Below, in pieces: positions 17,917-48,014 of a stretch of 48,014 bases of DNA. Where the stretch lies: positions 1 to 48,014 of the IMG/VR virus record IMGVR_UViG_3300048906_000023, one strand, 5' to 3'. Positions within the stretch are counted from its first letter, which is position 1. Each line of letters starts with the position of its first letter. The position numbers and the translations under genes were made by a program. Under the pieces are notes generated by a model, which had not been told where the DNA came from, did no database searches, and saw only the letters and a program-made list of their open reading frames with translations. This stretch comes from a virus.

Positions 17917-17918
17917 GC

Positions 17919-18557
17919 TCAGGCCGCCGGGGTCAGAGCGGCCTGGAACGACGTGAGCCAGCCTTGCACCGTGGCGTCGTCAGCGGTCTTCAGCGCCTCG
18001 AGCGAGGTGTTGCCGGCGGCCAGGGAGGACGTCACCCACGTTTCGTCGGCGCGCTTGCCGGGGCCGGTGTTGGCCGCCAGGTAGGCCAGGAGCTGTTGAT
18101 ACTTCGTCGGCGGCGTCAGCGTCGGGGGCGCCAGCGCGGCGGGCGGCGTCAGGGCCGGCGGGGTCAGCGTGGCCGCGGGCAGGCCGAGCGCGACGCCGGG
18201 AGCCGCGGCGCCGGGCGTGCCCATCTTGGCGCGGAGTTCCGCCTCGACGGTGGCGACGACGGTCGGCGGCGTGTTCTTGCGCTTCGTCCACTTGCCGTCG
18301 CCCTTGATCGACTTCGCGCCCGAGTGGATGCGCTCGTCCCACGGCAGGCCGGCGGAATCGAATTCGGGCGGCGTCGCGGTGGTCGCGCCGGTGGTCGTGG
18401 TGTCGGTGGTGCCTTCGTCGCCGTCGTCATCGGGGGCACCGTTGCCCACGCCAGCGGGCACGTTCTCGGCGCTGTCCTTCAGCGACTCGCCGGCCTTCAT
18501 GAGCGCGGCAGCGAAGGAGTACAGGAGGTATTGCAGGTTCGTCATCGGCTTGGACAT
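17919..18557 (-). CDS. hypothetical protein with acidic/Thr-rich and PPALTPP low-complexity regions and a GLPWDERIHS motif
   Basis: Inner ATG (MSKPMTNLQ...) of ORF 17919..18638. It is the first gene of the leftward operon. Confidence 0.6.
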   Translation of the reverse strand: MSKPMTNLQYLLYSFAAALMKAGESLKDSAENVPAGVGNGAPDDDGDEGTTDTTTTGATTATPPEFDSAGLPWDERIHSGAKSIKGDGKWTKRKNTPPTVVATVEAELRAKMGTPGAAAPGVALGLPAATLTPPALTPPAALAPPTLTPPTKYQQLLAYLAANTGPGKRADETWVTSSLAAGNTSLEALKTADDATVQGWLTSFQAALTPAA

Positions 18558-18579
18558 GGTTTCTATCTCTTGAAGTGGG

Positions 18580-18635
18580 TTGTGGTGCGTCATTGCACGG
18601 GTGCATAATAGCACCGTAACCATAACCATTGTCAA
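18580..18635. promoter_or_regulatory. candidate overlapping divergent sigma70-type promoters
   Basis: Rightward: TTGTGG (18580-85), 18-nt spacer, CATAAT (18604-09). Leftward: TTGACA (complement of 18630-35), 19-nt spacer, TATTAT (complement of 18605-10). Confidence 0.4.
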
Positions 18636-18636
18636 C

Positions 18637-20358
18637 ATGCTTCGACACTATCAAACCGAAACCGTTACCGCGATCGATGCGGCGTGGGGATCAGGCTACA
18701 AGAACATCATTCCGCAGCTTCCGACAGGTGCCGGAAAGACGCGGATCATGGGGTTTTTCGCGAAACGTCACGTGGACGCAGGCGGTTACGGTGTCGCCAT
18801 CGCGCATCGCAGCGTGCTCGTCGGGCAACTTTCGATGGCGCTCGCTGAGCTGGGTGTTCCGCACGACATCATTGCGCAGAAGGAAGTCGTTCGCACGATC
18901 GTGGCTGAGCACATGGAAGACCTGGGGCGGTCATTCTATGTGCCAGGCGCACGCTTCAAAGTCTGCAGCGTCGATACCCTGCCCGGACGCTCCGCAGCGC
19001 TCGCACCGTGGATCGCTCAGTGCACCATGGGGTTCACGGACGAGGCCCATCACGTCCTCGCTTCGAACAAGTGGGGTAAAGAATGTTTACGGTTCACGAA
19101 CCCCGCGATGCGGTGGCTGCTGCCCACTGCCACGCCTGAGCGAGCGGACGGCAAGGGCTTGGGTGTTGATGCCCACGGCATCGCGGACTTGATCGTGCCG
19201 GGGCCGTCCATGCGATGGTTGATCGACAATGGCTACCTGACGAACTTCCAAATCAGGGCGCCGCTTCCGGCCGACCTGGACTTGTCGAAAGTCGATATCG
19301 GTGCGAACGGTGAGTACAACCTCACGCAGTTGCGCAAGGCCGTCCACCAGTCGAAAAAGATTCTCGGCAACGTCGTTGACACCTACAAGAAGTTCACGCC
19401 GGGACAGCTCGGCATCGCGTTCGCGGTGGACATCGAGCACGCGATTGCGCTCACGAAAGAGTTCAACGACAAGGGCGTCCCGTGCGAACTCATCACGGGC
19501 GAGGAAGACCAAGGATCGCGTACCAAGAAGCTGAAGCGCTACCGTGCGCGACAGACCCTCGTCCTCGTGAACGTGGACTTGTTCGGCGAGGGTTTCGACT
19601 TGCCGGCCATCGAAGTCGTAATGATGGCGCGGCCCACCGCGAGTTACGCCCTGTTCGCGCAGCAGTTCGGACGTGGCCTGCGCCTGGGTGTCTCGCGTGC
19701 GGATATCGAGCTGTGGGAGACGTACACCGTCGCTCAACGCCTGGCGATCATCGCGGCCAGCGTGAAGCCCATCGCGTCGATCCACGACCACGTCGGCAAC
19801 ATGCTGCACTTCGGCGGGCCGCCCACGATGCCGCGTGAGTTCTCGCTCGACGCTCGTGTGCGTGGCGGTGAACCCAGCGGCGCGCTGGCGCTGCGGGTGT
19901 GTCTCAACCCGAATTGCCTGCAGCCCTTCGAGCGCTATCACACGCACTGCCCGTACTGCGGTTTCAACGTGCCTCCGCCGCCACTCACGAGCCTGCCGGA
20001 ACAGGTAGACGGAGACATCATCCTGTATACCGAGGACATGCTGCGCAAGCTGTTCGGCGTGGGCACCGTGGCGGAAGCGCTGGCCCTGGAGCCGAATCGC
20101 ATCCTGCATTTCCCGACGAACATCCGCGATCAGGGGCAGGCCCGCGGCATGCAGGCCGACCATAACAAGAAGCTGCTTGCGCAACAGCGCCTGGCGATGC
20201 TCATGCCGCTGGTGATGCCGCCGAAGTACACGGAGCGCGAGAACGCTCGTCGGTTCTTCCTCAATTACGGTTACGACATCGTGCAGGCCCGGCTGCTGCT
20301 CGGCGCCGCGACGGAAGCGCTGGTCGAGAAGATCGAAAAGAGCCTGACTAAAGTATAG
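18637..20358 (+). CDS. DEAD/DEAH-box (SF2) helicase with C-terminal zinc ribbon
   Basis: LRHYQ, Walker A PTGAGKT, DEAH box FTDEAHH, and CLNPNC...CPYCG. Confidence 0.85.
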   Translation: MLRHYQTETVTAIDAAWGSGYKNIIPQLPTGAGKTRIMGFFAKRHVDAGGYGVAIAHRSVLVGQLSMALAELGVPHDIIAQKEVVRTIVAEHMEDLGRSFYVPGARFKVCSVDTLPGRSAALAPWIAQCTMGFTDEAHHVLASNKWGKECLRFTNPAMRWLLPTATPERADGKGLGVDAHGIADLIVPGPSMRWLIDNGYLTNFQIRAPLPADLDLSKVDIGANGEYNLTQLRKAVHQSKKILGNVVDTYKKFTPGQLGIAFAVDIEHAIALTKEFNDKGVPCELITGEEDQGSRTKKLKRYRARQTLVLVNVDLFGEGFDLPAIEVVMMARPTASYALFAQQFGRGLRLGVSRADIELWETYTVAQRLAIIAASVKPIASIHDHVGNMLHFGGPPTMPREFSLDARVRGGEPSGALALRVCLNPNCLQPFERYHTHCPYCGFNVPPPPLTSLPEQVDGDIILYTEDMLRKLFGVGTVAEALALEPNRILHFPTNIRDQGQARGMQADHNKKLLAQQRLAMLMPLVMPPKYTERENARRFFLNYGYDIVQARLLLGAATEALVEKIEKSLTKV

Positions 20359-20364
20359 GGCTTA

Positions 20365-20385
20365 TTACGGTTACGGTTACGACGG
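20365..20385. repeat. TTACGG-TTACGG-TTACGA hexamer array; the 19-mer 20367-20385 is identical to 34517-34535
   Basis: Direct reading of both spacers. Confidence 0.9.
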
Positions 20386-20441
20386 GGTTATAGTGCAACC
20401 ACTGGCCCCGTGTTGAGGGCTTCAGCGAAGGAGTTACGGTT

Positions 20442-20702
20442 ATGACGCACTTGAAGATCAATGATGCGATGTGCAACGCATTCGGAGTCATCACCAAGAT
20501 CATGACGGAAGCCAAGGCTACGTGCCTGTGGCGCGTCGGTGGCCCGAACGGATCGGCGTTGGAGGGCTGGACTGTCGGTAAGCGCGTGGTGATCGTGCAA
20601 GCTTTCAAGGAGGGTGGCTGGTCGCATTACCTGCAGAGCGAGAACGACAACAATCTCGCCGACGCGACCATCGAGCTGTTGACCCTTCGCGATCCGGAGT
20701 AA
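20442..20702 (+). CDS. hypothetical protein (86 aa)
   Basis: ORF with AAGGAG and the conserved GTTACGGTTATG start context. Confidence 0.6.
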   Translation: MTHLKINDAMCNAFGVITKIMTEAKATCLWRVGGPNGSALEGWTVGKRVVIVQAFKEGGWSHYLQSENDNNLADATIELLTLRDPE

Positions 20703-27126: not shown

Positions 27127-29673
27127 ATGACCGCCAATCAGTTCATGATTTACCACTTGTATGAGTGGGACGACGCAAAACAGAAGTTCAAAAAGAAGCC
27201 GGTGGGGCTGCAGGGACAGCCTCTCATGACCGGGGGAGGCATCGAAACCAGCAGCGACGTCAACGCCGTCATCGGAACCATCAACGCACTCAACGCCGAC
27301 AACCCCGTGCAGCCGTATCGGCTCGGCCTGTGGATCACGCCAGGCATGTTCTTCCTCGACATGGACGAGGACGCGGTGCAGGGCCAGCAGCTCACCGCCA
27401 GCGCCACGGAGTTCTGCAAAGAGCTGGTCGAAGCCGGCTGCTACTTCGAGGCCAGCACGTCCGGCCGCGGTGCGCACGTGATCGGCCGGTACACGGGCGA
27501 GCTGCCAGCGCACACGATCCAACGACCGCTCAACGAACCGTCACCGCACGCGCTCTACACGTCGGGCCGGGGCTGCGTGCTCTCCGATGTCCACGCTGGC
27601 TCGTGGGACGTGGACGCCACCGCGCCGCTGGTGCGCCTGCTCGAGAAGTTCTTCAAGCCCCGCACGTCGGCCGCCACGCTTCACGCGGTGACTGCAGGCC
27701 CGCGTCCGGAGTGGCGTGGCCCGACTGACGATGACGCGCTGATCCTGCGCATGCTGGGCGCGACCGGCAGCACGCTGGGCCGCCTGCGTGGTGCGGTGCC
27801 GCTCATCGACCTGTGGAACGGTCGCTGCGCCCACAACAACGAAACCGATTACGCGCTCGCTGCGCACCTGGCGTTCTGGACGGGGTGTGATGGCGAACGT
27901 ATGGAACGCCTGATGCGTCGCAGCCCGCTCGCGGCCCATCGCGTCGAGAAGTGGGACAGCCACTCGACGTACCTGCGCGAGCTGACGATCAATGGCGTTA
28001 TCGAAACCACCGACACGGTCTACGCTGAGCCGGTGCGCGTGGACACCGCGAGCGTGCTGCTGGGACGTGCGACGCCGCCACCGCTGGCAGGCGTGCCTCT
28101 CGGCGCTGCTGTCGTGACGCTGGGCGAGCAGCCGGCCACCGACTGGTTCGACTACGTGGAGCAGACCACCGCGGCCATCAACACCGCCGGCACCCTGCGT
28201 GAGCTGTACGAAACGATCTTTCCGGGCGTGGCCGCGATGTCGGTTCCGGTGGTGCACGCGAACACGCTGGCCCAGGTTGCCAATCGCAAGCTCGAATCCA
28301 TGGGCAGCAAGCAGCCAATCAGCACGATCAAGGCGCTGCTGAGCCCGCCACGTGACCTGGCCGCGCTGCTGTCGGTGGACGTCCCGGAGTGGGCGGCGAG
28401 CCTGGTCTACGTGCGCAAGTCCGACGAGTTCTATGACACGTCCAGCGGCGCGCATTTCAACCAGACCGGGTTGCGCATGTCGTACAGCCGGTTCATGCCG
28501 ATGAAGGCCAGCGGCGTGCGTGAAGACCCCGTCCAAAAACTCATGGACGTGTGGAACATCACCAACGTGGACGAACTGCAGTACCGGCCGGATCAGCCGC
28601 CAATTTTCGAGCACGCTGGGCGCACCGTCGCCAACGAGTTCCGCGCCTCCACGATGCCCACGCCCGTGGTCGGCTCCGCGGAGTGCTCGGCCTGCATCGA
28701 GCTGTTCACGCGGCACCTGGCGCAGCTCGTGAACCAGCGCGGCGACGTCTACGCGGCCCTGCTGGGATGGATCGCGTTCAACGTGCAACACCCCGGCTCA
28801 AAAATCGGATGGGCGCCGCTTATCAAGGGCGTGGGAGGCGACGGCAAATCGATCATCGGCGACCTCCTGTTCGCAGCGATGGGGGAAGCGAACGTCAAGA
28901 TCACGTCGCCGTCCACGATCAGCAACGGGGGCGGCTTCACCGATTGGGCCATGGGCGCCTGCGTGAATCTCATCGAAGAAATCCGGCTCGAAGGCAAGGA
29001 GCGTCGCAAGCTGTACAACGCCATGAAGACGATCACGGGCGATCGACGCATCAATCCGAACCGCAAGGGCAAGGCCAGCGTTGAAACCTACGCGAACACG
29101 ATGAACCACATGGCGTTCACGAACTACGAGGACGCGATGCCCATGGACAACGATGATCGCCGCTGGGGAATCATCTTCACCCCGTGGGCGAACGCTTCGC
29201 AGGCTGCTGTCGTCAAGGGCCTGCGCAACGCGGATGACCTCCCTGCGTTCTTCAAGAGGCTGGGCGCCAGCATGCGGGGGGAGCCTGGGGCGTGGCGATC
29301 GTGGCTGATGGGCATCGATTTGTCATCGTTCGATCCGGAGGGCCGCGCGCCGTGGACATCCGAGCGGGACGTGATGGTGAGTTCTTCGGAAGACTACACG
29401 GAGCAGACGATCCGAGATTGCATCGAGCGCGGATGCACGGGCGTGAACGTGCGTGCGTTCTCGTCGGTGCTGCTGATGCAACGTGTGAGCGTGGCGCTGG
29501 GCCACCAACCGGACACCCGTTCATGGAATCGGATGTTGACCGATCTTGGCTACCGTCAACATTCTGTGCAAATTTGGTGGAGCAACCGATCGCACCGTGT
29601 TTGGGTCAAAGAAGCGCTCACCAAAGATGAAATCTTGGAAATCTTGACTCGATCGGCGTTCGCGGCGACCTGA
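27127..29673 (+). CDS. bifunctional primase-polymerase / D5-type (SF3) helicase
   Basis: 848 aa. Prim-pol motifs FFLDMDED and STSGRGAHV. Walker A GVGGDGKS. Confidence 0.8.
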   Translation: MTANQFMIYHLYEWDDAKQKFKKKPVGLQGQPLMTGGGIETSSDVNAVIGTINALNADNPVQPYRLGLWITPGMFFLDMDEDAVQGQQLTASATEFCKELVEAGCYFEASTSGRGAHVIGRYTGELPAHTIQRPLNEPSPHALYTSGRGCVLSDVHAGSWDVDATAPLVRLLEKFFKPRTSAATLHAVTAGPRPEWRGPTDDDALILRMLGATGSTLGRLRGAVPLIDLWNGRCAHNNETDYALAAHLAFWTGCDGERMERLMRRSPLAAHRVEKWDSHSTYLRELTINGVIETTDTVYAEPVRVDTASVLLGRATPPPLAGVPLGAAVVTLGEQPATDWFDYVEQTTAAINTAGTLRELYETIFPGVAAMSVPVVHANTLAQVANRKLESMGSKQPISTIKALLSPPRDLAALLSVDVPEWAASLVYVRKSDEFYDTSSGAHFNQTGLRMSYSRFMPMKASGVREDPVQKLMDVWNITNVDELQYRPDQPPIFEHAGRTVANEFRASTMPTPVVGSAECSACIELFTRHLAQLVNQRGDVYAALLGWIAFNVQHPGSKIGWAPLIKGVGGDGKSIIGDLLFAAMGEANVKITSPSTISNGGGFTDWAMGACVNLIEEIRLEGKERRKLYNAMKTITGDRRINPNRKGKASVETYANTMNHMAFTNYEDAMPMDNDDRRWGIIFTPWANASQAAVVKGLRNADDLPAFFKRLGASMRGEPGAWRSWLMGIDLSSFDPEGRAPWTSERDVMVSSSEDYTEQTIRDCIERGCTGVNVRAFSSVLLMQRVSVALGHQPDTRSWNRMLTDLGYRQHSVQIWWSNRSHRVWVKEALTKDEILEILTRSAFAAT

Positions 29674-34464: not shown

Positions 34465-34516
34465 GATTTCGATTCCTTGAAGTGGGAGAACGTTGATAGG
34501 GACAAGGGAGATTGTG

Positions 34517-34535
34517 ACGGTTACGGTTACGACGG
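34517..34535. repeat. second copy of the ACGGTTACGGTTACGACGG 19-mer
   Basis: Identical to 20367-20385. It lies in the spacer between two minus-strand genes. Confidence 0.9.
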
Positions 34536-34969: not shown

Positions 34970-35193
34970 AGTGATTTCCTCAGACGTTGAACAGACGGGC
35001 GAACAGGGAGCGGCGCACAGCACGCACCGGAGCGGGACGCATCCACGATGCAGGCGCAGTAGCGGCGCGCGTGGACAACAGAGCGTTAGCGGCGGATTCA
35101 GAGCGGATCATGTGGCGTGTCTCGTGTGGGCTGCGGTGTGCTCATTCATATGCAGTAAGCATGCCAACCCAAATTCCTACGATTACGGTTATG

Positions 35194-35266
35194 AAGTGAC
35201 AATCCTTGTCACTTTCGTGCGACCAAAATCGTCACAGTGACAATTAACGTCACTTACGAGGTGACG
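35194..35266. promoter_or_regulatory. cluster of three GTGAC/GTCAC palindromes (operator or terminase/cos recognition candidate)
   Basis: AAGTGAC-N7-GTCACTT (35194-35214), GTCACAGTGAC (35231-35241) and CGTCAC-N7-GTGACG (35248-35266), in an AT-richer spacer between divergent units. Confidence 0.5.
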
Positions 35267-35433
35267 AAATTTGGTACTCGCAAATGTCGTACCATCCCCG
35301 CCATGCGCTGGAGAGTTCGCGTCGTAATCGAAACTATAGACCGCCCCTTCTCCCATTCGCAAAAAATTGCCCACCGTAATCGTTAGTACACTACGCGGTG
35401 TACTTTTCAAAATCCTGTAGAGTCGAAAGCACT

Positions 35434-35940: not shown

Positions 35941-37815
35941 ATGGCTGCAGCCGTCAAGAAGACTGCGCCGCCGAAGGTGGTAGCGCGCAAGGTGCCCGCC
36001 AAGAAGGTCGCCGGTAACCCCAAGAAGACGCCGGCCGCTCGGCGCCCGCGGGATCGTGAGGCCGTGGACATCGGCCAGCAGGCTCCGCTCAAGCTCGTGC
36101 GTCCGACGTGGACGACAGCGTGCCCCGACTGGCAGGAACGCATCGTCAACGACCAGACGATGACGCCTTGCGCGCCGCTGTTTCCCACGGCCGCGGCGAA
36201 GGGCATGGCGATCTTCGACGAACTCAACATCGTTGACGCGGGGATCAAGTTCGGCCAGTGCCGTCCGTGGTTCCGCGAGTTCGCGGAGCAACTTTATGGG
36301 GCGTACTGCGACGTGCCAGGACACCCGGACGAAGGGCGCCGGCTGATTCGCACGTTCTTCATGCTGATCCCCAAGAAGAACGCGAAGTCCACGCTCGCGG
36401 CCGGGATCATGCTGACGGCGATTCTGTTGAACTGGCGGCCGGAGGCGGAATACATCATCCTGTCTCCGACGAAGGAAGTCGCTGAAAATTCGTGGAAGCC
36501 GCTGCTCGCTGCCATCGAGTCCGACGATGAACTCAGCGCGAAATTCAAAATTCAGAAGGCGCAGAAGATCGTCACGCACATCGGGACGAACTCCACGCTC
36601 AAGGTCGTGGCCGCGGACAGCGCTACGGTCGTCGGCAAGAAGGCCACGGGCGTGTTCGTGGACGAGCTGCACGAGTTCGGCAAGGTGGCGAAGGCCGAGG
36701 ACATGCTGCTAGAGGCTACCGGCGGCCTGATGAGCCGCCCTGAGGGCTTCGTGATCTATGCCACCACGCAGTCGTCCGAGCCGCCCGCGGGCGTGTTCAA
36801 GAAGGAACTGAGCTACGCACGCAAGGTGCGCGACGGTGCGGCCAACGATCCGACGTATCTCCCCATCATTTACGAATTTCCGGACTCGTATCTCGCAAAA
36901 CCTGCGAAGCTGTACACGCTGCCTCAAAATTGGCACATCGTGAACCCAAATTTGGGAGCCACGGTTGACGTCGAAATCTTGACGCAAAAGATCAGCAAAG
37001 CCGGACAAGACGGCGAAGATTCGATCCAAGGTGTCTATTCGAAGCACCTAAACGTCCAAATCGGCCTCGATCTAGGCGCTGACGCGTGGCCTGCGGCTCA
37101 ATTGTGGGAAGAGAACCGGCATAGCTACGTTCGCACCCTCAAGGAGCTGCAGGAGGTATCGGAAGTCGTTACCGCGGGCATCGACGGCGGCGGCCTCGAC
37201 GACTTGTTGGCTCTCACGTTCGTGGGGCGGCTCAAGAAGGGGCACGAGTCGCAGCCCGATCGTTACGTGAGCTGGTCACACTGCTGGGCCAACGAAATCG
37301 TGCTGAAGCGCCGGCCTGAGATTGCCGATCGGCTCCGTGACTTCGAGCGCGAGGGCCACCTGACGATTCCCACGGTCATCGGAGAGGACGTCAAGCAGTT
37401 GGCAGAACTCGTAAAGGGTGTCCACGCCACCGACCTACTCGCGGGCGTGGGGATCGACCCGGCCCGCATCGCGAGCCTGCTTACCGCGCTGGAGGACGCC
37501 GGGATTCCGACCCACGACACCGAGTTCGTGGTGAAGGTGCGCCAGGGCTGGTCGCTCTACTCGGCCATGCTGTGGATGGAGCGCGCGCTAGGCGAGGGGC
37601 GCTTCTACCACGCCGGACAGCCGATCGTCGATTGGGCCGTGGGCAACGCGAAGGTGATCCCCCGCGGCAACGCCATGCTCGTTACCAAGGAAATCTCAGG
37701 CAAAGCCAAGATCGACCCTGTCATGTCGAACTTCAACGCTTCGGAGCTGATGAGCCATAATCCCGCGAGCAGAACCGGGGGCTATTCCCTAGACAAGCTC
37801 ACGATGATGGGGTAA
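35941..37815 (+). CDS. terL: terminase large subunit (HK97/Terminase_1 type)
   Basis: Walker A-like IPKKNAKST, Walker B VFVDELHEF, 624 aa. Confidence 0.9.
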   Translation: MAAAVKKTAPPKVVARKVPAKKVAGNPKKTPAARRPRDREAVDIGQQAPLKLVRPTWTTACPDWQERIVNDQTMTPCAPLFPTAAAKGMAIFDELNIVDAGIKFGQCRPWFREFAEQLYGAYCDVPGHPDEGRRLIRTFFMLIPKKNAKSTLAAGIMLTAILLNWRPEAEYIILSPTKEVAENSWKPLLAAIESDDELSAKFKIQKAQKIVTHIGTNSTLKVVAADSATVVGKKATGVFVDELHEFGKVAKAEDMLLEATGGLMSRPEGFVIYATTQSSEPPAGVFKKELSYARKVRDGAANDPTYLPIIYEFPDSYLAKPAKLYTLPQNWHIVNPNLGATVDVEILTQKISKAGQDGEDSIQGVYSKHLNVQIGLDLGADAWPAAQLWEENRHSYVRTLKELQEVSEVVTAGIDGGGLDDLLALTFVGRLKKGHESQPDRYVSWSHCWANEIVLKRRPEIADRLRDFEREGHLTIPTVIGEDVKQLAELVKGVHATDLLAGVGIDPARIASLLTALEDAGIPTHDTEFVVKVRQGWSLYSAMLWMERALGEGRFYHAGQPIVDWAVGNAKVIPRGNAMLVTKEISGKAKIDPVMSNFNASELMSHNPASRTGGYSLDKLTMMG

Positions 37816-39026: not shown

Positions 39027-39712
39027 GCCGACTGATTCAACTGGACGACAGCCGCGTGGGCAAGAGCATCACGCGCGATTACACCTTCGTGATGGAAAAG
39101 GCCGTCGGTGAATCCGGCGTGTTCGAAGGCTACGCGAGCACCTTCGGCAACGAGGACTCGTATGGCGACACGATCGTTAAGGGCGCGTTCACCGCGGGCC
39201 TCAAGAAGTTGAAGGACAACAACCAGAAACTCAAGATGCTGTGGAACCACGATCGTCAGCAGCCGATCGGCGTGTTCACCGCGGCGTCCGAGGACAAATC
39301 GGGCCTCTACGTCAAGGGCAAGCTCACGAAGGGAGTACAGAAGGCCGACGAGGTGCTGCTGCTGATGCACGACGGCGCCATCGACTCGATGAGCATCGGC
39401 GGCTACGTCGTTAAGGAGCTGTTCGACAACAAGACGGGTAAGTCGGAGCTGCAGGAAATCGAGCTGCGCGAAATCTCGCCCGTCACCTTTCCTGCGAACA
39501 CGCAGGCTCGCATCAACACCGTCAAGTCCATCGAGGCTTTCGGTATGATGTCGGAACTGGAGGCCCACTTGCGCGATGTCGGGGGGTTCTCGGTGAAGGA
39601 GGCCAAAGCGCTCATCGCGAAGGCCAAGGGGCTGGTTCCGCAGCGTGATGTTGCGGCTGAAGCTGCCGAAATTCTCCGTCAAGCCATCAACAATCTGAAA
39701 CTCACCAAGTGA
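39023..39712 (+). CDS. prohead maturation protease (HK97 / S78 family)
   Basis: GYASTFGNEDSYGDTIVKGAF motif; ATGA coupling to the portal gene. Confidence 0.85.
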   Translation: MSRLIQLDDSRVGKSITRDYTFVMEKAVGESGVFEGYASTFGNEDSYGDTIVKGAFTAGLKKLKDNNQKLKMLWNHDRQQPIGVFTAASEDKSGLYVKGKLTKGVQKADEVLLLMHDGAIDSMSIGGYVVKELFDNKTGKSELQEIELREISPVTFPANTQARINTVKSIEAFGMMSELEAHLRDVGGFSVKEAKALIAKAKGLVPQRDVAAEAAEILRQAINNLKLTK

Positions 39713-39724
39713 AGGAGCACCACC

Positions 39725-40981
39725 ATGGAACTCGCTGAAGTTCAAGACATCGCCAAGAAGCTGAGCGACACGAACGCCGAGCTGCGCAAGCAGCAGACGG
39801 AACTCGTCGAGGCGCACAAGATCACCATGAAGGCGGTCGAGGACGTCAAGACGCTGGACAAGACCCACGCCGACAACATCGACAAGGCGCTGACCAAGGC
39901 CAACGAGACGGGCCTGCAGGTCAAGGAGCTGGCGCAACAGCTCGACGAAGCGCTCAAGAAGATGAAGGAAGCGCCCGTCGGCCCCGTCACGCTCAAGATG
40001 GAGCTGTCGAAGTCGATGGAGTCGGACGCGAACAAGGCCATGCAGCAACGCATCGCCAATCGCGAAGGCCCCGGCTCGCTGCGCCTGACCGCCAAGGCCA
40101 CGATCGGCATGGCGGCCACTGCCACGATCGCCGCGCGCCCGTACACGGACGACATCGTCAACCTGACGCGTCAGCCGCTGCGCATCCGCGACCTGTTGCC
40201 GGTCGTTCCGGTCGTCACCGAGAGCATCCGCTACGCGGTGCAGAACGTCCGCAACAACAACGCGGCCATCGTCGCGGAAGGTGCCTCGAAGCCGTACAGC
40301 GACTACGGCTGGACGGAAGCGACGATGATCGTCCAGGTGATCGCGCACCTGGCGAAGCTGTCGCTGCAGGCCATCGCCGACGTGCCGCGCCTGGTCGCGG
40401 AAGTCGAGAACGAGATGCGCTACGGCCTGGGCCTGAAGGAAGAGAGCGAACTGCTCAACGGCACCAGCACCACCGCTGGCGGCCAGGCCGGGCACTTCAA
40501 CGGCCTGCTGGCGAACGCAACCCAGTTCGCGATGCCCGCGGGCGTGGACACCTCGCTGGTCATCAACCAGCTCGATCGCCTGCGCATCGCACAGCTCGTC
40601 CTGCAGCTCGCCTACGCGCCGGCCGACGGCCAGGTGCTCAACCCGATCGACGTCGCGAACCTGGAACTCGTGCGCCGTGACCCGGATCGTGGCGGCGGCT
40701 ACATCTTCGGCAACCCCGACCAACAGCGTTCGATCGTGACGCTGTGGGGCGTGCCGACGGTGCAGACCCCGGCCATGGCGGTGGGCAACTACCTGATGGG
40801 CAATTTCGCGATCGCCGCGACGATCTACCAGCGCGAGGGCGTCACGGCGCTCATTTCGACGGAGAACGCCGACGACTTCGAAAAGAACCTGGCGACGATG
40901 CGCGTGGAAGAACGTCTCGGCCTGGCGGTGCGCCGTCCGTGGGCGCTGGTCAAGGGTGCGCTGGGTTCCGAAGGTTCCTGA
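39725..40981 (+). CDS. major capsid protein (HK97 fold)
   Basis: 418 aa with an N-terminal coiled-coil delta-like region. Strong RBS AAGGAGCACCACCATG. Position after the protease. Confidence 0.9.
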   Translation: MELAEVQDIAKKLSDTNAELRKQQTELVEAHKITMKAVEDVKTLDKTHADNIDKALTKANETGLQVKELAQQLDEALKKMKEAPVGPVTLKMELSKSMESDANKAMQQRIANREGPGSLRLTAKATIGMAATATIAARPYTDDIVNLTRQPLRIRDLLPVVPVVTESIRYAVQNVRNNNAAIVAEGASKPYSDYGWTEATMIVQVIAHLAKLSLQAIADVPRLVAEVENEMRYGLGLKEESELLNGTSTTAGGQAGHFNGLLANATQFAMPAGVDTSLVINQLDRLRIAQLVLQLAYAPADGQVLNPIDVANLELVRRDPDRGGGYIFGNPDQQRSIVTLWGVPTVQTPAMAVGNYLMGNFAIAATIYQREGVTALISTENADDFEKNLATMRVEERLGLAVRRPWALVKGALGSEGS

Positions 40982-41008
40982 TCCCCGCGGCTGAGGCCGC
41001 TGCAAACG

Positions 41009-41045
41009 AAAGCCCCGTCGTAACTGGCGGGGCTTTTTCTTTTCC
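41009..41045 (+). terminator. rho-independent terminator after the capsid gene
   Basis: AAAGCCCCG-tcgtaactgg-CGGGGCTTT followed by TTCTTTT. Confidence 0.75.
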
Positions 41046-41082
41046 GGTGTACACTTTCGTAATCGTAACCAGTGAGGTGAGA

Positions 41083-42429
41083 ATGGAAGTAACGATCGAC
41101 GGTGTCCGGTACGTTCCGGTTACGGGGAGCGTCGTCGCTCTCACAGTTCTTGTTCCGTCGGTGTCCACGCGCCGCGCAACGTTCGCTCCCAAGATCGCAG
41201 AAAGCCTATTCGGCCAGCATGAACGCCTCGTCCCTGAGCTGGGCGAGCGCGTGGAAATCCTGATCGTCACCGACACCGGTCGCAGCGGCGGCATGCTGAT
41301 AGGCGACAAGCGCAACGCGATGCTGCGCATGGCCCGTGGCGAGTACGTGGTGTTCGTGGACGATGACGACCGTGTCGCCGACGACTACCTCAGCACGCTG
41401 CTGGCGGCCACGAGCACGGGCGACGACTGCATCACGTTCGACTGTAGCGTGAGCCTCAACGGTGCCCCGCCCCGCACGTGCCATTACGACCTGAAATACG
41501 AGCGGGACGCGAACGTCGGAGAGCATTACGAGCGCCTGCCGAACCACATCACGGCGGTGAAACGGATGCTCGCGCTGTCCTGCGGATTCCCGTCCAAGCA
41601 ATGCGGCGAGGACAGCGACTACGCGGCCCGCCTGCGTCCCATGCTGCGCACGCAGCATCGCATCCCGCGAACGCTCTATTTCTACGATTCCAACAGTGCC
41701 ACGACGGAAACGCAGGGCCGCGCAGTCGCGACGTCGCCGATCGTGGACGTCGTAATTCTCTCGAAGGCTGCGAGCACCGAGCTGCGAGCGATGTGCCAAG
41801 ACGCGATCGACACGTGCATTGCCGGCGCGGGACGTGGGCAAGTCAACATCATCGTGGTGGAGCAAATCGAGGGCACGAAATACAACGGTGCAAACGAAAT
41901 TTTGTACGCGCCCGGAAATTTCAACTACAACAAATTTGCGAATCGTGGTGCCACGGCCGGTAAGGCTCCGTGGATCATGGTCGCGAACAGCGATTTGCAG
42001 TTCGCTGGAGGCTGGCTTGAGGCTCTGCTCGCCGCCAATCGCGATTGCGTGTCGCCGGTTGATCCGACGCACACGACGCAGCGCAACGTCCGCCATAACG
42101 AGGCTGGATGGCAGAACGGGCACCATTTCTCAGGTTGGTGCTTCATGGTGCGCCGAACGCTGTGGCAGTCCATCAACGGTTTCGACGACTGCGTGAGCTA
42201 TTGGTGTAGCGATGACGTCGTCATCGAGCAGTGTCGCCAAGTCGGCGTCATGCCGATGGTGGTTGCAGCCGCACGCGTGCGCCACCTCGGAAGCCGCACG
42301 CTGCGCGTCCCCAGCGATGATGAATCGTGGGGCCAGGTGATGATCTTCAATCAGAAATACAAGAAGGATCGTTTCTCCAACGATTCGCGTTTTCGCGCAT
42401 TCCTGCGCAAGAAAGGTGCCCTCGCATGA
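41083..42429 (+). CDS. two-domain glycosyltransferase (GT-A/GT2-like halves)
   Basis: Inner ATG of ORF 40744..42429. First half: LTVLVPSVS...EYVVFVDDDD (DxD). Second half: VDVVILSK...IMVANSDLQF. Confidence 0.7.
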   Translation: MEVTIDGVRYVPVTGSVVALTVLVPSVSTRRATFAPKIAESLFGQHERLVPELGERVEILIVTDTGRSGGMLIGDKRNAMLRMARGEYVVFVDDDDRVADDYLSTLLAATSTGDDCITFDCSVSLNGAPPRTCHYDLKYERDANVGEHYERLPNHITAVKRMLALSCGFPSKQCGEDSDYAARLRPMLRTQHRIPRTLYFYDSNSATTETQGRAVATSPIVDVVILSKAASTELRAMCQDAIDTCIAGAGRGQVNIIVVEQIEGTKYNGANEILYAPGNFNYNKFANRGATAGKAPWIMVANSDLQFAGGWLEALLAANRDCVSPVDPTHTTQRNVRHNEAGWQNGHHFSGWCFMVRRTLWQSINGFDDCVSYWCSDDVVIEQCRQVGVMPMVVAAARVRHLGSRTLRVPSDDESWGQVMIFNQKYKKDRFSNDSRFRAFLRKKGALA

Positions 42430-43037
42430 ACGTCATTCTCGTAAGCCATCCGAGCCGTCTCAACTACGTGGAGCAGTTGCAGCGCGTCATCCCCGTTGTC
42501 ACGACCGTGATCGATACCGTCAGCGCGTGGAGCGGCCACCTCATGGCTCTGCGCCTGGCGCTCGCGCATCAAAGCCGCGTGGTCATCATGGAGGACGATG
42601 CGATCCCTGTCGTCGGTTTCGAGAGGCTGGCGAAAGAGTGGGCCGACTTGCATCCGGACAACATGCTGTCGTTCTATCTCGGCACGTCGCGCCCTGCGGA
42701 CTTTCAACCGCTGGTGGACGAGCGGATGCGTATCGCCGACTTGCAAGGCCGACGCGAGTTGCAAATGCCCACGCTGCTGCACGGCGTGTGCTACTCGATC
42801 CCCACGCACGAACTTCCGCGTGTGGTCGCAGCGCTGGAGAAGCCGGGCCGCCAGCGCGAAGCTGATTACGCCGTGGGCGCGGCGTGGGGGCGATCGGTGG
42901 TCTACCCGATAGAATCCCTCGTACAGCACCGCGACGGTGCTCCGGTGGAGCGACACCCTGACGGGAAGCCACGCACCGAACCACGCGTCGCCCGACGTCT
43001 CGCCGGCCCGCTGATGTTCAACCCACTGGAGAAATGA
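42426..43037 (+). CDS. glycosyltransferase-like protein (GT25-like, tentative)
   Basis: ATGA coupling to the upstream gene. Motifs VILVSHPSRLNY...SGHLMAL...VVIMEDDAIPV. Confidence 0.5.
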   Translation: MNVILVSHPSRLNYVEQLQRVIPVVTTVIDTVSAWSGHLMALRLALAHQSRVVIMEDDAIPVVGFERLAKEWADLHPDNMLSFYLGTSRPADFQPLVDERMRIADLQGRRELQMPTLLHGVCYSIPTHELPRVVAALEKPGRQREADYAVGAAWGRSVVYPIESLVQHRDGAPVERHPDGKPRTEPRVARRLAGPLMFNPLEK

Positions 43038-43038
43038 A

Positions 43039-43416
43039 ATGGAAGCACTGTCCGGATTCGCAGTCATGGTGATCGCCGTAATGGCGGTCGTAATCGTCAT
43101 CATGGGCCTGGCGCTGTGGAAGCATCGCACGCCCGCGCAGGAGTTCCGCGCTGTCGGCGCGTGGGCAAAAGAGGAAGTCGAGCAGGCCGGCGACTGGCTC
43201 AAGAAGACCGAGCCGTCAGCACTCTCCGAAGCCGAGAAGCTGTTGGAGCGCGCACAGGCGTGGCTGACCGACACCACCAAGCAGGACGAGAAGATCGCCG
43301 AGCACCGTGATGCGATCGTCGCGCTGGAGGCTGAGAAGGCTCAACGCGCTGCGATGCTCAAGTTGCACGTAGAGAAGCTGCAGGCCCTCAGCACGCCGCC
43401 GGCTGCTAGTTCGTAA
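43039..43416 (+). CDS. membrane-anchored coiled-coil protein (125 aa)
   Basis: N-terminal TM FAVMVIAVMAVVIVIMGLAL followed by charged helical sequence. Confidence 0.6.
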   Translation: MEALSGFAVMVIAVMAVVIVIMGLALWKHRTPAQEFRAVGAWAKEEVEQAGDWLKKTEPSALSEAEKLLERAQAWLTDTTKQDEKIAEHRDAIVALEAEKAQRAAMLKLHVEKLQALSTPPAASS

Positions 43417-43434
43417 CCGTAAGGAGTCGTCATC

Positions 43435-43944
43435 ATGACTTTCGATCTTGCCACCGCTCGTAGGTATCTCAAGGCCGATGGCCCGGATGACGACGTCATC
43501 ACGAACATGCTTTCGCAGGTGCAAGCGATTTGCGAGGGCTATTGCAATCGCCGCTTCTACGCCACGGAGCAGGCGATGTCCGACGATTTCATCGAAGCGC
43601 TCACCGATCGTGCGGACGCACTCGCCGCCCGCGCGACGCAGCTTTCGGCAATCGTAGGAAGCGACGCCGACTCGATGGGAACCCGCGGCCTGATCCGCGA
43701 CCATTACATTGAAGTGCTCGGCCGGATCAGCCAGCGCATCCACGGCATTCCGATCGATTCGGATGTGGAGGCCGCGATGTTCCTCACGCTGGGCCACCTG
43801 TACGTCAACCGGGAAGACAACGTCGTCAGCGGCAACAACGCGGTGCAGCTTCCGGTCGGAGCGCAGCGCATCCTGCAGCCCAAGCTGTGGATCGGCGACC
43901 TGGCCGACGATTCCAGCGGCGACGTGTACCCCTGTGGGAGCTGA
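43435..43944 (+). CDS. head-tail connector (gp6-like)
   Basis: The N-terminus MTFDLATARRYLKADGPDDDVITNMLSQV...CEGYCNRRFY is typical of Phage_connect_1. RBS is TAAGGAG. Confidence 0.75.
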   Translation: MTFDLATARRYLKADGPDDDVITNMLSQVQAICEGYCNRRFYATEQAMSDDFIEALTDRADALAARATQLSAIVGSDADSMGTRGLIRDHYIEVLGRISQRIHGIPIDSDVEAAMFLTLGHLYVNREDNVVSGNNAVQLPVGAQRILQPKLWIGDLADDSSGDVYPCGS

Positions 43945-43946
43945 CC

Positions 43947-44300
43947 ATGCCGCAACAAGGCTACAAGACGCGTCAAATCGAGCTGTGGGTTCCGATCACC
44001 GCGCTCGATGGTGCCAACGAGCCCGTGGGCGACGATCCGTGGAGCCTGTACGCCACGCGCTGGGCGGAACCCAAGGGTGAGACGGGCATGGGGTCGATTC
44101 GATCGGCAGCGAGCGCGGGCGGCGTCAATACGCCCCTCAATCGCTACTCGTTCCGCATCAATTACGACCGCACCGTCAACACCACGATGCAGGTTCGCAC
44201 CACGGAAGGCGACCGCATGAACGTCGTAAGCGTTCTCCACGACCTGGCGCGTCGCACGTACACCGACGTCGTGTGCGAACTCGGTGGTTCGAATGGCTAG
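43947..44300 (+). CDS. head-tail adaptor / head closure protein
   Basis: Inner ATG of ORF 43887..44300. Size, order and the ...YKTRQIELW... pattern fit. Confidence 0.65.
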   Translation: MPQQGYKTRQIELWVPITALDGANEPVGDDPWSLYATRWAEPKGETGMGSIRSAASAGGVNTPLNRYSFRINYDRTVNTTMQVRTTEGDRMNVVSVLHDLARRTYTDVVCELGGSNG

Positions 44301-44879: not shown

Positions 44880-45293
44880 ATGGCTTCCGATGTCAAACTG
44901 AGCGTGCTCGCCAAGAACGCGATTCTCGACGCGCTGACCGCGCAGCTCGGCGCGGGTGCGCTGATCGACCTGTACGACGGCACCAAGCCGGCGTCTCCTG
45001 ACACCGCGGTGTCCACGCAGAACAAGCTCGTGACGCTGACCGGCGCCACGCCGTTCGCGCCTGCTGCTTCCGGTGGCGTGCTGACCGCGGGCGCCATCGC
45101 CAACGGTTCCGGCAGCGTGGCGGCGGGCAGCGGCAAGACGGCCACGTGGGCGCGAATCAGCACCAGCGGCGGCACCGCGAAAATTGACGTCACCGTCGCT
45201 GCGGCCGGCGCCGACCTCAACATCAACAACCCGAACATCGCGACCGGGCAGACCGTGAGCGTGTCCTCGTTCACGATCACCGCTCCGAACTAA
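44880..45293 (+). CDS. hypothetical virion-module protein (137 aa)
   Basis: ORF with a GAGG RBS; Ala/Gly/Thr-rich. Confidence 0.6.
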   Translation: MASDVKLSVLAKNAILDALTAQLGAGALIDLYDGTKPASPDTAVSTQNKLVTLTGATPFAPAASGGVLTAGAIANGSGSVAAGSGKTATWARISTSGGTAKIDVTVAAAGADLNINNPNIATGQTVSVSSFTITAPN

Positions 45294-45303
45294 GGGGAAC
45301 GCC

Positions 45304-46242
45304 ATGAGTCTCGGCGGACAACGACTGAAACAGCATCTTGTCGAATTCGTCCCCGGCGTGGGGATGGTGATCGACGGCGTCACCGACGCCACCACGACCA
45401 CCGGCCCGTGGAATTTCACCGTTCCCCGAGACGTGGCAAGGCTGGAAGACCTCGGCGGCGTGGGCGGTGGCGGTGGCGGTGGCGGTGGTTTCGGTTCCAC
45501 CGTAAGCCGTGGCGGCGCGGGCGGCGGTGGTTCCGGCCACTGCTTCAAGCTGCTGAATGAATCCGTCGTCCCCGGCGCGGTGCTGACGATCACCGTCGGC
45601 GCAGGCGGCAACGGTGGCGCGGTGGGCGCCAACGGCACGTCGGGCGGAACCACCATCATCGCTGGTATCCAACGTCCGCTCGGCGGCTCCGGTGGGTCGA
45701 GCGGGGCGATCCGCTTCCCTGGTGGTCAAGGTGCCGTGGCGCCCGTTGCCACCAGCGTGGGCACCGCAGGCGGCCAGGCCGGCAACTTCACCGGCACGGC
45801 TGGAACCGCGGGTGCTGCCGGTGCTGCCGGTGGCGCCAGCTCTCCGCCTGCGAACTTCACGCTCGACGAACGCGGAAGCCTGGCCGGCGGTGGCGGCGGT
45901 GGCGGTGGCGCGAACGCTTCCGGTTCCGTCGCGGGCGCTTCGGGCGGTATTTCCAGCGGCCTCAACTCGGCGTGGATCAGCTCTATCGCGTTCAACAACA
46001 ACGCGGCGGCTTTCACTGCGCTGCAGGGCACCGGCAACACCGACGGCACCACCAGTTACGGTGGTGGCGGCATGGGCGGGATCAACTTTTTCGGCCTGGG
46101 CGGCAAGGGTGGCAACGGCAACAGCGCTGGCGCTGCTCCGACCGTCGGTTACGGTGGCGGTGGTGGCGGTGGTGGCGGCAACGCTGCGGGCGGCAACGGC
46201 AATGCCGGTTACCTGAAGTTCACGTACTGGAGCATGGAGTAA
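45304..46242 (+). CDS. glycine-rich protein (312 aa, poly-G and GxGG tracts)
   Basis: ORF with an AAGGGGA RBS. The non-repetitive N-terminus and the C-terminus (GYLKFTYWSME) argue for real coding. Confidence 0.6.
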   Translation: MSLGGQRLKQHLVEFVPGVGMVIDGVTDATTTTGPWNFTVPRDVARLEDLGGVGGGGGGGGGFGSTVSRGGAGGGGSGHCFKLLNESVVPGAVLTITVGAGGNGGAVGANGTSGGTTIIAGIQRPLGGSGGSSGAIRFPGGQGAVAPVATSVGTAGGQAGNFTGTAGTAGAAGAAGGASSPPANFTLDERGSLAGGGGGGGGANASGSVAGASGGISSGLNSAWISSIAFNNNAAAFTALQGTGNTDGTTSYGGGGMGGINFFGLGGKGGNGNSAGAAPTVGYGGGGGGGGGNAAGGNGNAGYLKFTYWSME

Positions 46243-46592
46243 TGGCCCTCACCATCCCCTATGAAAATTCCGCCTCGATCAGCTCGACGGAATACAGCCT
46301 CGTCGCAGGATCGACGAGCCTTGCCACCATCACGAACGCGCCCGGCATCTATCAGTGCTGGCTCGACCTCAGCGCGCTGACCGCGACCGAGCAATACGAA
46401 CTGCTCGTGTACGAAGCAGTCGCGGCCGGCGGCACGAAGCGCGTGGCCCATCGTGAGCAACTGGCCGGCGTGTACCCGAACCCGACGCATGTGCTGCCGG
46501 GGCTGCAGCTCGCCAACGGTTTCGATTTCACCTTGCGCAAGGTGCAGGGCACCGATCGCACCATCGCGTGGTCGATCCGCAAGGCGGCGTAA
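46242..46592 (+). CDS. hypothetical virion-module protein (116 aa)
   Basis: TAATG coupling to the upstream gene; inner ATG of ORF 45972..46592. Confidence 0.55.
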   Translation: MALTIPYENSASISSTEYSLVAGSTSLATITNAPGIYQCWLDLSALTATEQYELLVYEAVAAGGTKRVAHREQLAGVYPNPTHVLPGLQLANGFDFTLRKVQGTDRTIAWSIRKAA

Positions 46593-47543
46593 ATGTTCTT
46601 CTTCACCCCTCAGCAGTCTGCAGCCGCCGCGTCCTCGCTGTCGCCTGTCACGGGTGACATCGCGTTCACGCTGGGCGGGTTCGGCGTGGCGATCGTCGCG
46701 ACTGATCCGGAGTCGAGTTCGATCGCGTTCACGCTGGGCAAGTTCGGCGTTGCGGTCGCAGCCACGTCCAGCGTAACCGGAACCATCGCACTGACGCTCG
46801 GCGGTTTCGGGGTGTCGATCGCCGCGACCGATCCAGAAGCCAGCTCGATCGCGTTCGGACTCGGCTCGTTCGGCGTGGCTGCGACGGCCTCCGTCGAAAT
46901 CGCCGGGGACGCCGTGATCCACGTGGGCGGGTTCGGCGTGGACATCGAGGCGAGCCAACCCGGTTCGACGTACATCGCGTTCACGCTGGGATCGTTCGGT
47001 GTCGCAGCGCAGGCCAGCGTTGAAGTCAGCGGGGATGTCCACGCCTTCCTTGGCGGCTTCACGGTGGACATCGAGGCGACCGTAACCGAGGATGACGAGC
47101 GCGACGCCGACATCGCTTTCACGCTGGGCGGCTTCCAAGTTCACATCGCGGCGAGCACCGACGCGCCCGTGCACCGCTACCTCTCCGAAATCATCCCGGC
47201 GATCCTCAACGAGCTGGTGGACGGCCGCGTGTGGCAGAACGCCACGCCTGATGACCTGGCGCGCTCGTCCACGGATCGCATCCTCCCGTTCATCGTGTGG
47301 CGACGGGTGGGCGGCCAGGACAGCGAGTACGTCGATCAGACGGCCAGCAACAAGCGCCACGCACGTGTGCAGATTCACAGCAACCATCCGAGCAGTCTCG
47401 GCGCCGACATGCTCGTGGAGAGCGTGATGCAAGCCATGTTGGCCGCGCCTTATACTGTCGGGGTCTACGGTTCTCCTGTTGGAGACTACGACGGCCCAAG
47501 GAAGCTGCACGCACCGTTTCAGCAGTTTTCCGTGTGGTTCTGA
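46593..47543 (+). CDS. DUF3168-type tail terminator/completion protein with an N-terminal 8x ~19-aa repeat domain
   Basis: The C-terminal ~125 aa (HRYLSEIIPAILNELV...LPFIVWRRV...) looks like DUF3168. The N-terminus carries eight IAFTLGGFGV-x-I-x-A(T/S) units. Confidence 0.6.
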   Translation: MFFFTPQQSAAAASSLSPVTGDIAFTLGGFGVAIVATDPESSSIAFTLGKFGVAVAATSSVTGTIALTLGGFGVSIAATDPEASSIAFGLGSFGVAATASVEIAGDAVIHVGGFGVDIEASQPGSTYIAFTLGSFGVAAQASVEVSGDVHAFLGGFTVDIEATVTEDDERDADIAFTLGGFQVHIAASTDAPVHRYLSEIIPAILNELVDGRVWQNATPDDLARSSTDRILPFIVWRRVGGQDSEYVDQTASNKRHARVQIHSNHPSSLGADMLVESVMQAMLAAPYTVGVYGSPVGDYDGPRKLHAPFQQFSVWF

Positions 47544-47574: not shown

Positions 47575-48014
47575 ATGTCTTCCGATTTCATCAACGGCAC
47601 GCGCTACGCCTTCAGCACGATCCTCGGCCCGGCGCTGGCGATCACCGCCATGACGAACGCGGCGCCGCCCGCGCTCACCTCGACCACGATGCCCGCCAAC
47701 GACGACATCGTGCTGCTGTCCATGGCGAGCTGGACGGACTTGAACGAAGTCGCCACCTATGCCGACAGCATGGGCCACCTGTTCGAGCTGGACACCACGA
47801 ACACCAAGTTCTACCCGACTGGCGAAGGCCAGGGCACGTACCGCGACGTGAGCGGCTTCACGACGCTGTCGCAAGTCCGTTCGGTCGACCAATCCGGCGG
47901 CGACGCCAACACGTTCACCTACAGCTACATCGAGGATCGCGGCAACCGCCAGCGCTCGAAGCCGACGGACACGAACCCGGTGGTGCTGACGTTCACGCTC
48001 GATCGTGATCCGAC
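47575..48014 (+). CDS. major tail (tube) protein, 5' part (continues at nt 128 of the window after the 127-nt overlap is removed)
   Basis: ATG with AAAGGAG 8 nt upstream. The frame is open to the window end and in phase with 3..347. Confidence 0.7.
   Translation, partial: MSSDFINGTRYAFSTILGPALAITAMTNAAPPALTSTTMPANDDIVLLSMASWTDLNEVATYADSMGHLFELDTTNTKFYPTGEGQGTYRDVSGFTTLSQVRSVDQSGGDANTFTYSYIEDRGNRQRSKPTDTNPVVLTFTLDRDP
47888..48014. repeat. terminal overlap, identical to 1..127
   Basis: Exact match read by eye. Confidence 0.95.

Follow-up and report, generated by a model that had tools for sequence, protein, structure and literature searches.

We found that a metagenome contig of the Joint Genome Institute (JGI), IMG/VR record IMGVR_UViG_3300048906_000023, analyzed over its whole 48,014 nucleotides (hereafter the window), carries two overlapping glycosyltransferase genes between the major capsid protein (MCP) gene and the head-tail adaptor gene of a phage late operon. 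The two products, GT-A (448 amino acids, aa) and GT-B (203 aa), are homologous to the glycosylation system of mycobacteriophages Che8 and Corndog, and we give a probability of roughly two in three to the reading that they act in the cytoplasm late in infection and glycosylate proteins of the phage particle itself. We favor this reading because of the homology to the mycobacteriophage enzymes and because of the -Gly-Ser (-GS) termini found on capsid, adaptor and tail-tube proteins; the predicted solubility of both enzymes and the location of their genes in the late structural operon also speak for it. Virion glycosylation was one of two alternatives raised by an earlier reading of the window made from its letters (the sequence-only reading), and the same homology and termini argue for that alternative. 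What is new here is the observation that the capsid, tail-tube and adaptor proteins of phages bearing the enzyme pair end in -Gly-Ser, an ending mostly missing from the proteins of relatives in which no pair was detected.

Two Glycosyltransferases Between the Capsid and Adaptor Genes

The sequence-only reading had described a three-gene glycosyltransferase island between the major capsid gene and a gp6-like connector gene, and both the gene spacing and the assignment of the connector (adaptor Ad1) to phrog_40 bear this out. It had also divided the 448-aa protein into two GT-A-like halves, a division recovered with PHROG families, AlphaFold2 and Foldseek. Over its full length, GT-A matches the phage glycosyltransferase family phrog_8858 (1.8e-90), and its halves match different PHROG glycosyltransferase families, phrog_14775 (residues 19-217) and phrog_22332 (residues 220-443). 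The match with the Pfam GT2 family (PF00535) reaches 42.9 bits and passes the cut-off of 23.3. The AlphaFold2 model, based on a 37-sequence alignment (pLDDT 92), consists of two Rossmann-type domains with a disordered linker between them (residues 210-216), and its best Foldseek matches in the Protein Data Bank (PDB) are the two-domain transferases K4CP, PmHS2, LARGE1 and LH3. Three motifs, DDDD (D93-D96), E176-D177 and N302-x-D304, are invariant in 37 homologs. By tblastn, GT-A is about 50% identical to glycosyltransferases of Gordonia and Mycobacterium phages. Its N-terminal half is 44% identical to Che8 gp108 (E 3e-41), and its C-terminal half is weakly similar to Corndog gp37 (hhalign E 2e-4) and marginally so to Che8 gp109 (E 0.04). 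A weak NCBIfam similarity and a PDB sequence match (9jma) both point to PglI. The maximum Kyte-Doolittle hydrophobicity over 19 residues is 1.6 for GT-A and 1.2 for GT-B, hence neither possesses a membrane segment. As modeled, GT-A is a soluble glycosyltransferase with two GT-A domains.

Many proteobacterial GT-A homologs are longer, about 680 aa, and carry a third domain, PF02709 (Glyco_transf_7C; P0028-P0069, L003 8001-10055). The HK542-type large glycosyltransferases encoded beside GT-B in most of the surveyed loci almost always end in WWKHK.

GT-B was correctly recognized by the sequence-only reading as a 203-aa glycosyltransferase with an ATGA-coupled gene (overlap at 42426; GT-A fold, EDD motif). 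It shares 29% identity over 195 aa with Che8 gp110 (E 1e-15) and 31% with Corndog gp38 (E 7e-11), and is a homolog of both. The EDDA motif is invariant and common to the three proteins, and in 45 homologs E56-D57-D58 and several His and Asp residues do not vary. The AlphaFold2 model (pLDDT 91.5) adopts a minimal GT-A fold, with Mimivirus R655, POMGnT1, LH3, COLGALT1 and STIV A197 as nearest structures. The glycosyltransferase folds and DxD residues on which the sequence-only reading had made its assignment depend are thus present, since both folds are modeled and DDDD, N302-x-D304 and EDD are invariant. Its label "GT25-like" for GT-B fared less well and is only loosely supported: no Pfam-A or NCBIfam match was obtained at E <= 0.1, the PDB sequence search returned none, and the GT25 enzyme COLGALT1 is one of many fold neighbors (E 2e-4, TM ~0.5), ranking behind R655, POMGnT1 and LH3. 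The PHROG label of the GT-B family is "glucosyltransferase."

The mycobacteriophage counterparts provide the functional context. According to PMC12363180, which cites Freeman et al. (2023, Cell Host Microbe 31:1216), Che8 gp110 and Corndog gp38 are the two glycosyltransferases essential for mycobacteriophage capsid glycosylation, and other papers citing Freeman et al. give O-glycosylation of the capsid and/or the tail in Che8/Corndog-type mycobacteriophages. GT-B belongs to the same family of enzymes. The glycans of the mycobacteriophage particles are reportedly attached to the C-terminal ends of the capsid and tail-tube proteins, and virion glycosylation is said to have little evidence among other phages.

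C-Terminal -Gly-Ser in Phages Carrying the Enzyme Pair

The C-terminus of the window capsid protein reads SEGS; the adaptor ends in PCGS, the tail tube in PSSS, a 207-aa tail-region protein in VHGS and ORF3, the product of the third island gene, in AASS. The related contig L001, in which the pair is present and GT-A is 65% identical, has GS at the end of the capsid, the adaptor, the tail tube and the ORF3 homolog. Among other pair-bearing phages, Che8 shows KTGS on the capsid and SDGS on the tail tube, and Corndog LVGS on the capsid, VEFL on the adaptor and KGDS on the tail tube. In coliphage HK542, GS is found on the capsid, adaptor and tail tube only, out of 26 proteins from the structural and the glycosyltransferase/HNH regions. 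Adaptors ending in GS are encoded by L001, L009, HK542, L200 and Gordonia phage Phendrix, and the tail-tube homologs of L001, L009 and L010 have the same ending. Phendrix (L005, 1587-5403) encodes four consecutive head-region proteins with terminal -GS (capsid gp74, gp75, gp76 and adaptor gp77), the genes of which adjoin the gp79/gp80 glycosyltransferase pair. In turn, Silvanus, the closest isolate by capsid (40%), has no match to GT-A or GT-B, and its capsid ends in GG, its adaptor in LL and its tail tube in AA (YKAA).

We surveyed 216 loci, of which 80 were anchored on GT-B in IMG/VR, 80 on relatives of the window capsid and 56 on GT-B in species-representative bacterial genomes, and compared counts of 90%-identity clusters by the Fisher test. 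Capsid clusters ending in GS, in another Ser and otherwise numbered 15/2/0 with the enzymes and 2/1/29 without detected enzymes (p 1e-8), in classes that are imperfect, as enzyme status was judged within 10-kb flanks of the capsid gene. The corresponding figures were 11/2/0 and 0/2/6 for tail tubes (p 2e-4) and 4/2/0 and 0/0/7 for adaptors (p 0.02). The 56 bacterial-genome loci repeat the result, with GS on 22/24 capsids and 21/24 tail tubes; among them are prophages from Rhizobiaceae, Martelella, Pseudomonas and a metagenome-assembled genome (MAG) of Methylophilaceae. Of all C-terminal dipeptides on the coding strand of loci with the enzymes, GS is the most frequent (207/4254, vs. 12/4129 on the opposite strand). 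Capsid or tail-tube proteins account for 143 of the 207 GS-ending open reading frames (ORFs), and most of the others fall into candidate families whose size and sequence resemble those of capsid or tail-tube proteins. Several capsid and tail-tube families that failed to cluster together display the pattern, and the enzyme position, behind the capsid gene or ahead of the terminase gene, makes no difference to it.

The module is present in at least 572 IMG/VR contigs and in prophages of 50-odd mostly Gram-negative species, including coliphage HK542. Its location was the subject of a synteny survey proposed by the sequence-only reading. The order in which the enzymes follow the capsid gene does recur, both within the clade of the window and in prophages of Rhizobiaceae and Methylophilaceae, but it is the rarer one; in 92/135 surveyed loci the pair lies instead directly before HNH, TerS and TerL, as in Che8. 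In the Methylophilaceae MAG (L169, 4693-5977), ORFs of 200 and 231 aa stand between the capsid and GT-B genes in place of the 448-aa GT-A, and GT-B and a GS-ending capsid are retained although the extension enzymes differ. It suggests that glycan-extension enzymes may be interchangeable around a constant GT-B, and it fits GT-B as the constant, protein-recognizing component.

Proposed Mechanism and Its Implications

Beyond the gene structure, folds, catalytic motifs, homology and statistical association described above, we infer substrates, order of action, sugars and benefit to the phage as follows. GT-B, with its EDD metal-binding motif, would place the first sugar, taken from a host nucleotide-sugar, on the serine at the extreme C-terminus of proteins ending in -Gly-Ser-COOH or -x-Ser-COOH, that is the capsid protein, the Ad1 adaptor, the tail tube and perhaps the 207-aa tail protein. 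GT-A, with two independent active sites like those of bifunctional glycan polymerases, would then add at least two more sugars or a repeating disaccharide. The outcome would be a glycan coat over head and tail, and the phage might benefit by masking from binding or degrading factors, or by altered stickiness.

A wider proposal, which we hold to be evenly poised, is that the C-terminal -Gly-Ser-COOH is a portable tag directing gp110-family glycosyltransferases to capsid, adaptor and tail tube, and that coated virions are common in phages of Proteobacteria, including HK542 and mEp390, the window being one such case in which the enzymes moved beside the gene of their main substrate. If true, virion glycosylation would extend to major phage groups, model coliphages among them, and a sequence rule would be at hand for predicting glycosylated virion proteins. 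The small tag-and-enzyme pair could then serve to sugar-coat phage particles or other proteins, which would be relevant to phage-therapy pharmacology, and the question would arise of what purpose a glycan coat has in phages that never meet antibodies.

Several points weigh against virion glycosylation by the pair. In the literature within reach, virion glycosylation has been demonstrated only for a few mycobacteriophages, where it is a shield from antibodies, none of the demonstrated cases concerns a phage of a Gram-negative host, and no relevant study of the HK542 or mEp390 genes was found. The remark of the sequence-only reading that virion or envelope glycosylation would be unusual for a phage of a Gram-negative host therefore holds as far as demonstrated cases go, but not for the genes, as proteobacterial prophages commonly carry the pair. 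Two of the window proteins, the tail tube and ORF3, end in SS and not in GS, and the Phendrix tail tube lacks a terminal serine. Besides the imperfect enzyme classes of the survey, many of the enzyme-bearing loci are related enterobacterial prophages. HK97 (L225, 3000-9000), which has no GT-B match, encodes a capsid ending in SSGS and an adaptor ending in EEGS within the same head module. Since these termini are retained there, the -GS tag can persist where the enzymes are missing, at least when modules have been exchanged recently. The HK97 capsid masses are reportedly unmodified.

The capsid and adaptor C-termini of HK97 are identical to those of HK542 (L008), and the tail tubes of the two phages differ, ending in TIS in HK97 and SGS in HK542. 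Tail-tube type and enzymes appear to travel together.

Alternative Explanations

The second alternative of the sequence-only reading was late remodeling of the cell envelope. The enzymes would modify a host envelope glycan, such as lipopolysaccharide, O-antigen, capsule or exopolysaccharide, late in infection, so as to block superinfection or the re-adsorption of progeny to debris, with ORF3 as a membrane partner. Many phage glycosyltransferases act on O-antigen, GT-A resembles the polysaccharide polymerases K4CP and PmHS2 and shows the weak similarity to the lipid-linked-glycan enzyme PglI in NCBIfam and PDB (9jma), and ORF3 is a predicted membrane-anchored protein translationally coupled to GT-B. 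Yet, neither GT-A nor GT-B has a membrane segment, the window yielded neither a GtrA-type flippase nor a GtrC-type partner, ORF3 is absent from most pair-bearing loci, and the -GS ends of capsid, tail-tube and adaptor proteins would be left unexplained. In addition, virion proteins are the substrates of the Che8 and Corndog homologs, as stated in PMC12363180. Taken with the lack of membrane segments and of a flippase-type partner, this leaves the second alternative unsupported, and we consider it unlikely. The hallmarks of a Gtr-type cassette are likewise missing: hydrophobic segments are lacking in both GT-A and GT-B, ORF3 contains just one helix, and neither an integrase nor a repressor family was detected among the annotated window genes. 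Overall, the observation made by the sequence-only reading is confirmed and its interpretation partly supported.

It is also conceivable, with a somewhat smaller chance, that the glycosyltransferases are active and that -GS is unrelated to them, the termini serving assembly or a protease in certain head and tail modules and accompanying the enzymes through linkage. The retention of GS termini by HK97 and the abundance of related prophages among the enzyme-bearing loci would be in keeping with this. However, capsid and tail-tube families that did not fall into common clusters share the pattern, as do actinophages (Che8, Corndog, Phendrix) and prophages of alpha-, beta- and gamma-proteobacteria, and it holds both where the enzymes follow the capsid gene and where they precede the terminase gene.

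Just as improbable is another intracellular target, either phage DNA with bases hypermodified against restriction or a host protein modified for takeover: phage DNA glycosyltransferases are diverse, according to a preprint (bioRxiv 10.1101/2023.12.21.572611), and PHROG labels the GT-B family "glucosyltransferase," but no hydroxymethylase, TET/JBP-type dioxygenase or other base-modification gene occurs among the PHROG-annotated genes (several ORFs are matchless), the pair lies in the structural operon or beside the terminase gene and not among DNA-metabolism genes, the closest fold neighbors of GT-B are protein- and glycan-modifying GT-A enzymes, and the -GS tag would stay unexplained. DNA modification and Gtr-type seroconversion were both rejected, as the partner genes that they need were not found among the annotated genes.

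ORF3, Terminator and Repeat Elements

The third island gene encodes ORF3, a 125-aa protein described by the sequence-only reading as having an N-terminal transmembrane helix. Residues 8-26 do form a strong hydrophobic helix (mean Kyte-Doolittle 3.09); the remainder is helical and charged, and the protein ends in PPAASS*. No family match was obtained in Pfam, PHROG or NCBIfam. Homologs are weak and found only in the close relatives L001 (26% identity, ending in VTGS) and L009 (ending in GPTV), and no equivalent is present in the other loci where glycosyltransferase genes follow the capsid gene. Because its homologs are confined to two close relatives, we dropped ORF3 from the core module; judging from this distribution, it is clade-specific and not a core part of the system.

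A terminator-like hairpin behind the capsid gene had been taken as a sign of insertion. Such a terminator is normal for the HK97-type module, being also annotated in HK97, HK542 and Silvanus and visible in L001. The TCGTAA elements, previously regarded as the start and end of the island, proved to belong to a genome-wide repeat: TCGTAAYCGTAA elements number 16 in the genome (<=1 mismatch), vs. 0.12 expected by chance. Many copies lie between longer ORFs or at their ends. The YCGTAA hexamers occur in tandem (TCGTAACCGTAA and variants), and some copies are positioned directly 5' of ribosome-binding sites. In L001 and L089, two related contigs, the TCGTAA/YCGTAA repeat was not found. The repeat is specific to this phage and probably regulatory, either as the binding site of a phage-specific regulator or as a promoter element. 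We rejected the elements as island ends or att-like sites, given that they form a genome-wide repeat missing from relatives. Recent horizontal insertion of the island was rejected as well, as its GC and GC3 resemble those of the neighbors and its layout is common to a clade of contigs.

Genome Setting

An exact 127-bp direct repeat at 1-127 and 47888-48014 of the window marks the contig as a phage genome of about 47.9 kb that is circular or complete. Megablast of the region 39700-44300 against GenBank phages gave zero matches. The late operon runs TerS, TerL (35941-37815), portal, protease and MCP, and genes for head closure and neck proteins lie 3' of the Ad1 gene. The GT-A, GT-B and ORF3 genes share the strand of the head-connector operon, have coupled start and stop codons, lie downstream of the terminator-like hairpin and show the GC and GC3 of neighboring genes (Table 1).

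TABLE 1 Location of the glycosyltransferase genes, candidate substrates and sequence elements in the window
Feature	Position	Strand	Remarks
Major tail (tube) protein, 3' part	128-347	+	C-terminus FPATFPSSS*; proposed substrate
207-aa tail-region protein	4624-5247	+	Directly 3' of tape measure gene; phrog_2913; C-terminus AVHGS*
Further repeat copies (examples)	13528-13539, 20265-20276, 20365-20382, 20434-20445, 34515-34532, 35177-35194, 35374-35385
Major capsid protein (MCP), HK97 fold	39725-40981	+	Pfam Phage_capsid 6.9e-35; C-terminus KGALGSEGS*; proposed substrate
Intrinsic-terminator-like hairpin and T-run	41008-41045	+	Hairpin 41008-41037, 13-pair stem, 7 GC pairs; 3' of capsid gene
TCGTAATCGTAA, copy of genome-wide YCGTAA repeat	41057-41068	+	Among 16 copies
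GT-A, 448 aa, two GT-A domains (modeled)	41083-42429	+	Start ATG at 41083; phrog_8858 1.8e-90
GT-B, 203 aa, GT-A fold (modeled)	42426-43037	+	ATGA overlap with GT-A; phrog_854 3.3e-40
ORF3, 125 aa, predicted N-terminal membrane helix	43039-43416	+	Begins 1 base past GT-B stop codon
TCGTAACCGTAA, second repeat copy near island	43411-43422	+	Directly 5' of ribosome-binding site of adaptor gene
Ad1 head-tail adaptor (gp6-like)	43435-43944	+	phrog_40 1.4e-13; C-terminus VYPCGS*; proposed substrate
Major tail (tube) protein, 5' part	47575-48014	+	Gene crosses circular join; homolog of 218-aa Phage_tail_3 protein of L001

The 207-aa tail-region protein is a possible further substrate by its terminus, and its probable L009 counterpart, of equal length though not aligned, ends in NFSGS.

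The genome encodes Rz-like spanins and a holin-endolysin cassette, and because of the spanins the host is predicted to be diderm (Gram-negative). No integrase or repressor family was detected among the annotated genes, in agreement with the sequence-only reading, which had found no integrase, and the phage is therefore probably virulent. Its replication set is T7-like, located at 13540-20358 and 27127-29673, and includes a family A DNA polymerase, a gp2.5-like single-strand binding protein, an exonuclease and a primase-helicase; these T7-like genes are combined with a siphovirus-type genome.

Elsewhere in the connector region, three additional genes at 44880-46592, between the neck protein and tail terminator genes, constitute a second non-canonical insert. 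They encode a 137-aa virion structural protein (phrog_3758), an ORF of about 117 aa and a 312-aa very glycine-rich protein with runs of G and a weak match to phrog_863 (annotated as tail fiber assembly). The following gene (46593-47543) encodes a 316-aa protein, the C-terminal third of which matches tail terminators (phrog_123) and the first ~190 residues of which comprise a ~19-aa unit (IAFTLGGFGV...) repeated about nine times in degenerate form.

Comparison With Known Systems

The Gtr systems (GtrA/GtrB/GtrC) resemble the window in being phage-borne glycosyltransferases that include a GT2-family member. They differ in possessing a flippase, a membrane-embedded transferase, an integrase and a lysogeny module, none of which was detected in the window. 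K4 chondroitin polymerase (K4CP), Pasteurella heparosan synthase 2 (PmHS2) and human LARGE1 have, like GT-A, two tandem GT-A domains, each with a metal-binding motif. However, their whole-chain TM-score with GT-A is about 0.3, the arrangement of the domains differs and identity is 10-12%. These enzymes build polysaccharides on lipid or glycan acceptors, and for GT-A a polymerizing activity is only hypothetical.

A closer parallel is offered by HK97-like coliphages and enterobacterial prophages (HK542 gp54/gp55, mEp390, ECP1, Cronobacter ENT39118), in which a GT-A-type protein, recognized by blastp, is paired with a GT-B homolog 40-44% identical to that of the window. Their hosts are Gram-negative as well, and the capsid, adaptor and tail tube of HK542 end in GS. 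In contrast to the window, these phages are temperate and their pair precedes HNH, TerS and TerL at the cos end; many of the large subunits contain the third domain PF02709.

Among the mycobacteriophages, Corndog (cluster O) carries its transferase genes gp35-gp38 within the structural operon (PMC4351075). Its gp38 is the GT-B homolog, gp37 is weakly similar to the C-terminal half of GT-A, and its capsid ends in GS. Unlike in the window, the tail tube ends in DS and the host is actinobacterial. In Che8 (cluster F), gp110 is the homolog of GT-B and gp108 that of the N-terminal half of GT-A; the C-terminal half of gp108 is not common to GT-A, and the similarity to gp109 is marginal. The enzymes of the window and of Che8 are alike soluble, and the termini compared on capsid and tail tube are TGS and DGS in Che8 and EGS and SSS in the window. 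In contrast to Che8, the window combines the gp108-like domain and a second GT-A domain within a single protein of 448 aa, and its genes lie between capsid and adaptor, whereas those of Che8 are found at the genome end before an HNH gene. It differs further in its predicted Gram-negative (diderm) host and in an adaptor that is tagged too. The gene order of Che8 is the same as the domain order of the window (gp108-like, gp37/gp109-like, gp110-like). Owing to these homologies and to the shared order, the two enzyme genes of the window resemble Che8 gp108-109-110 in collinear but partly fused form.

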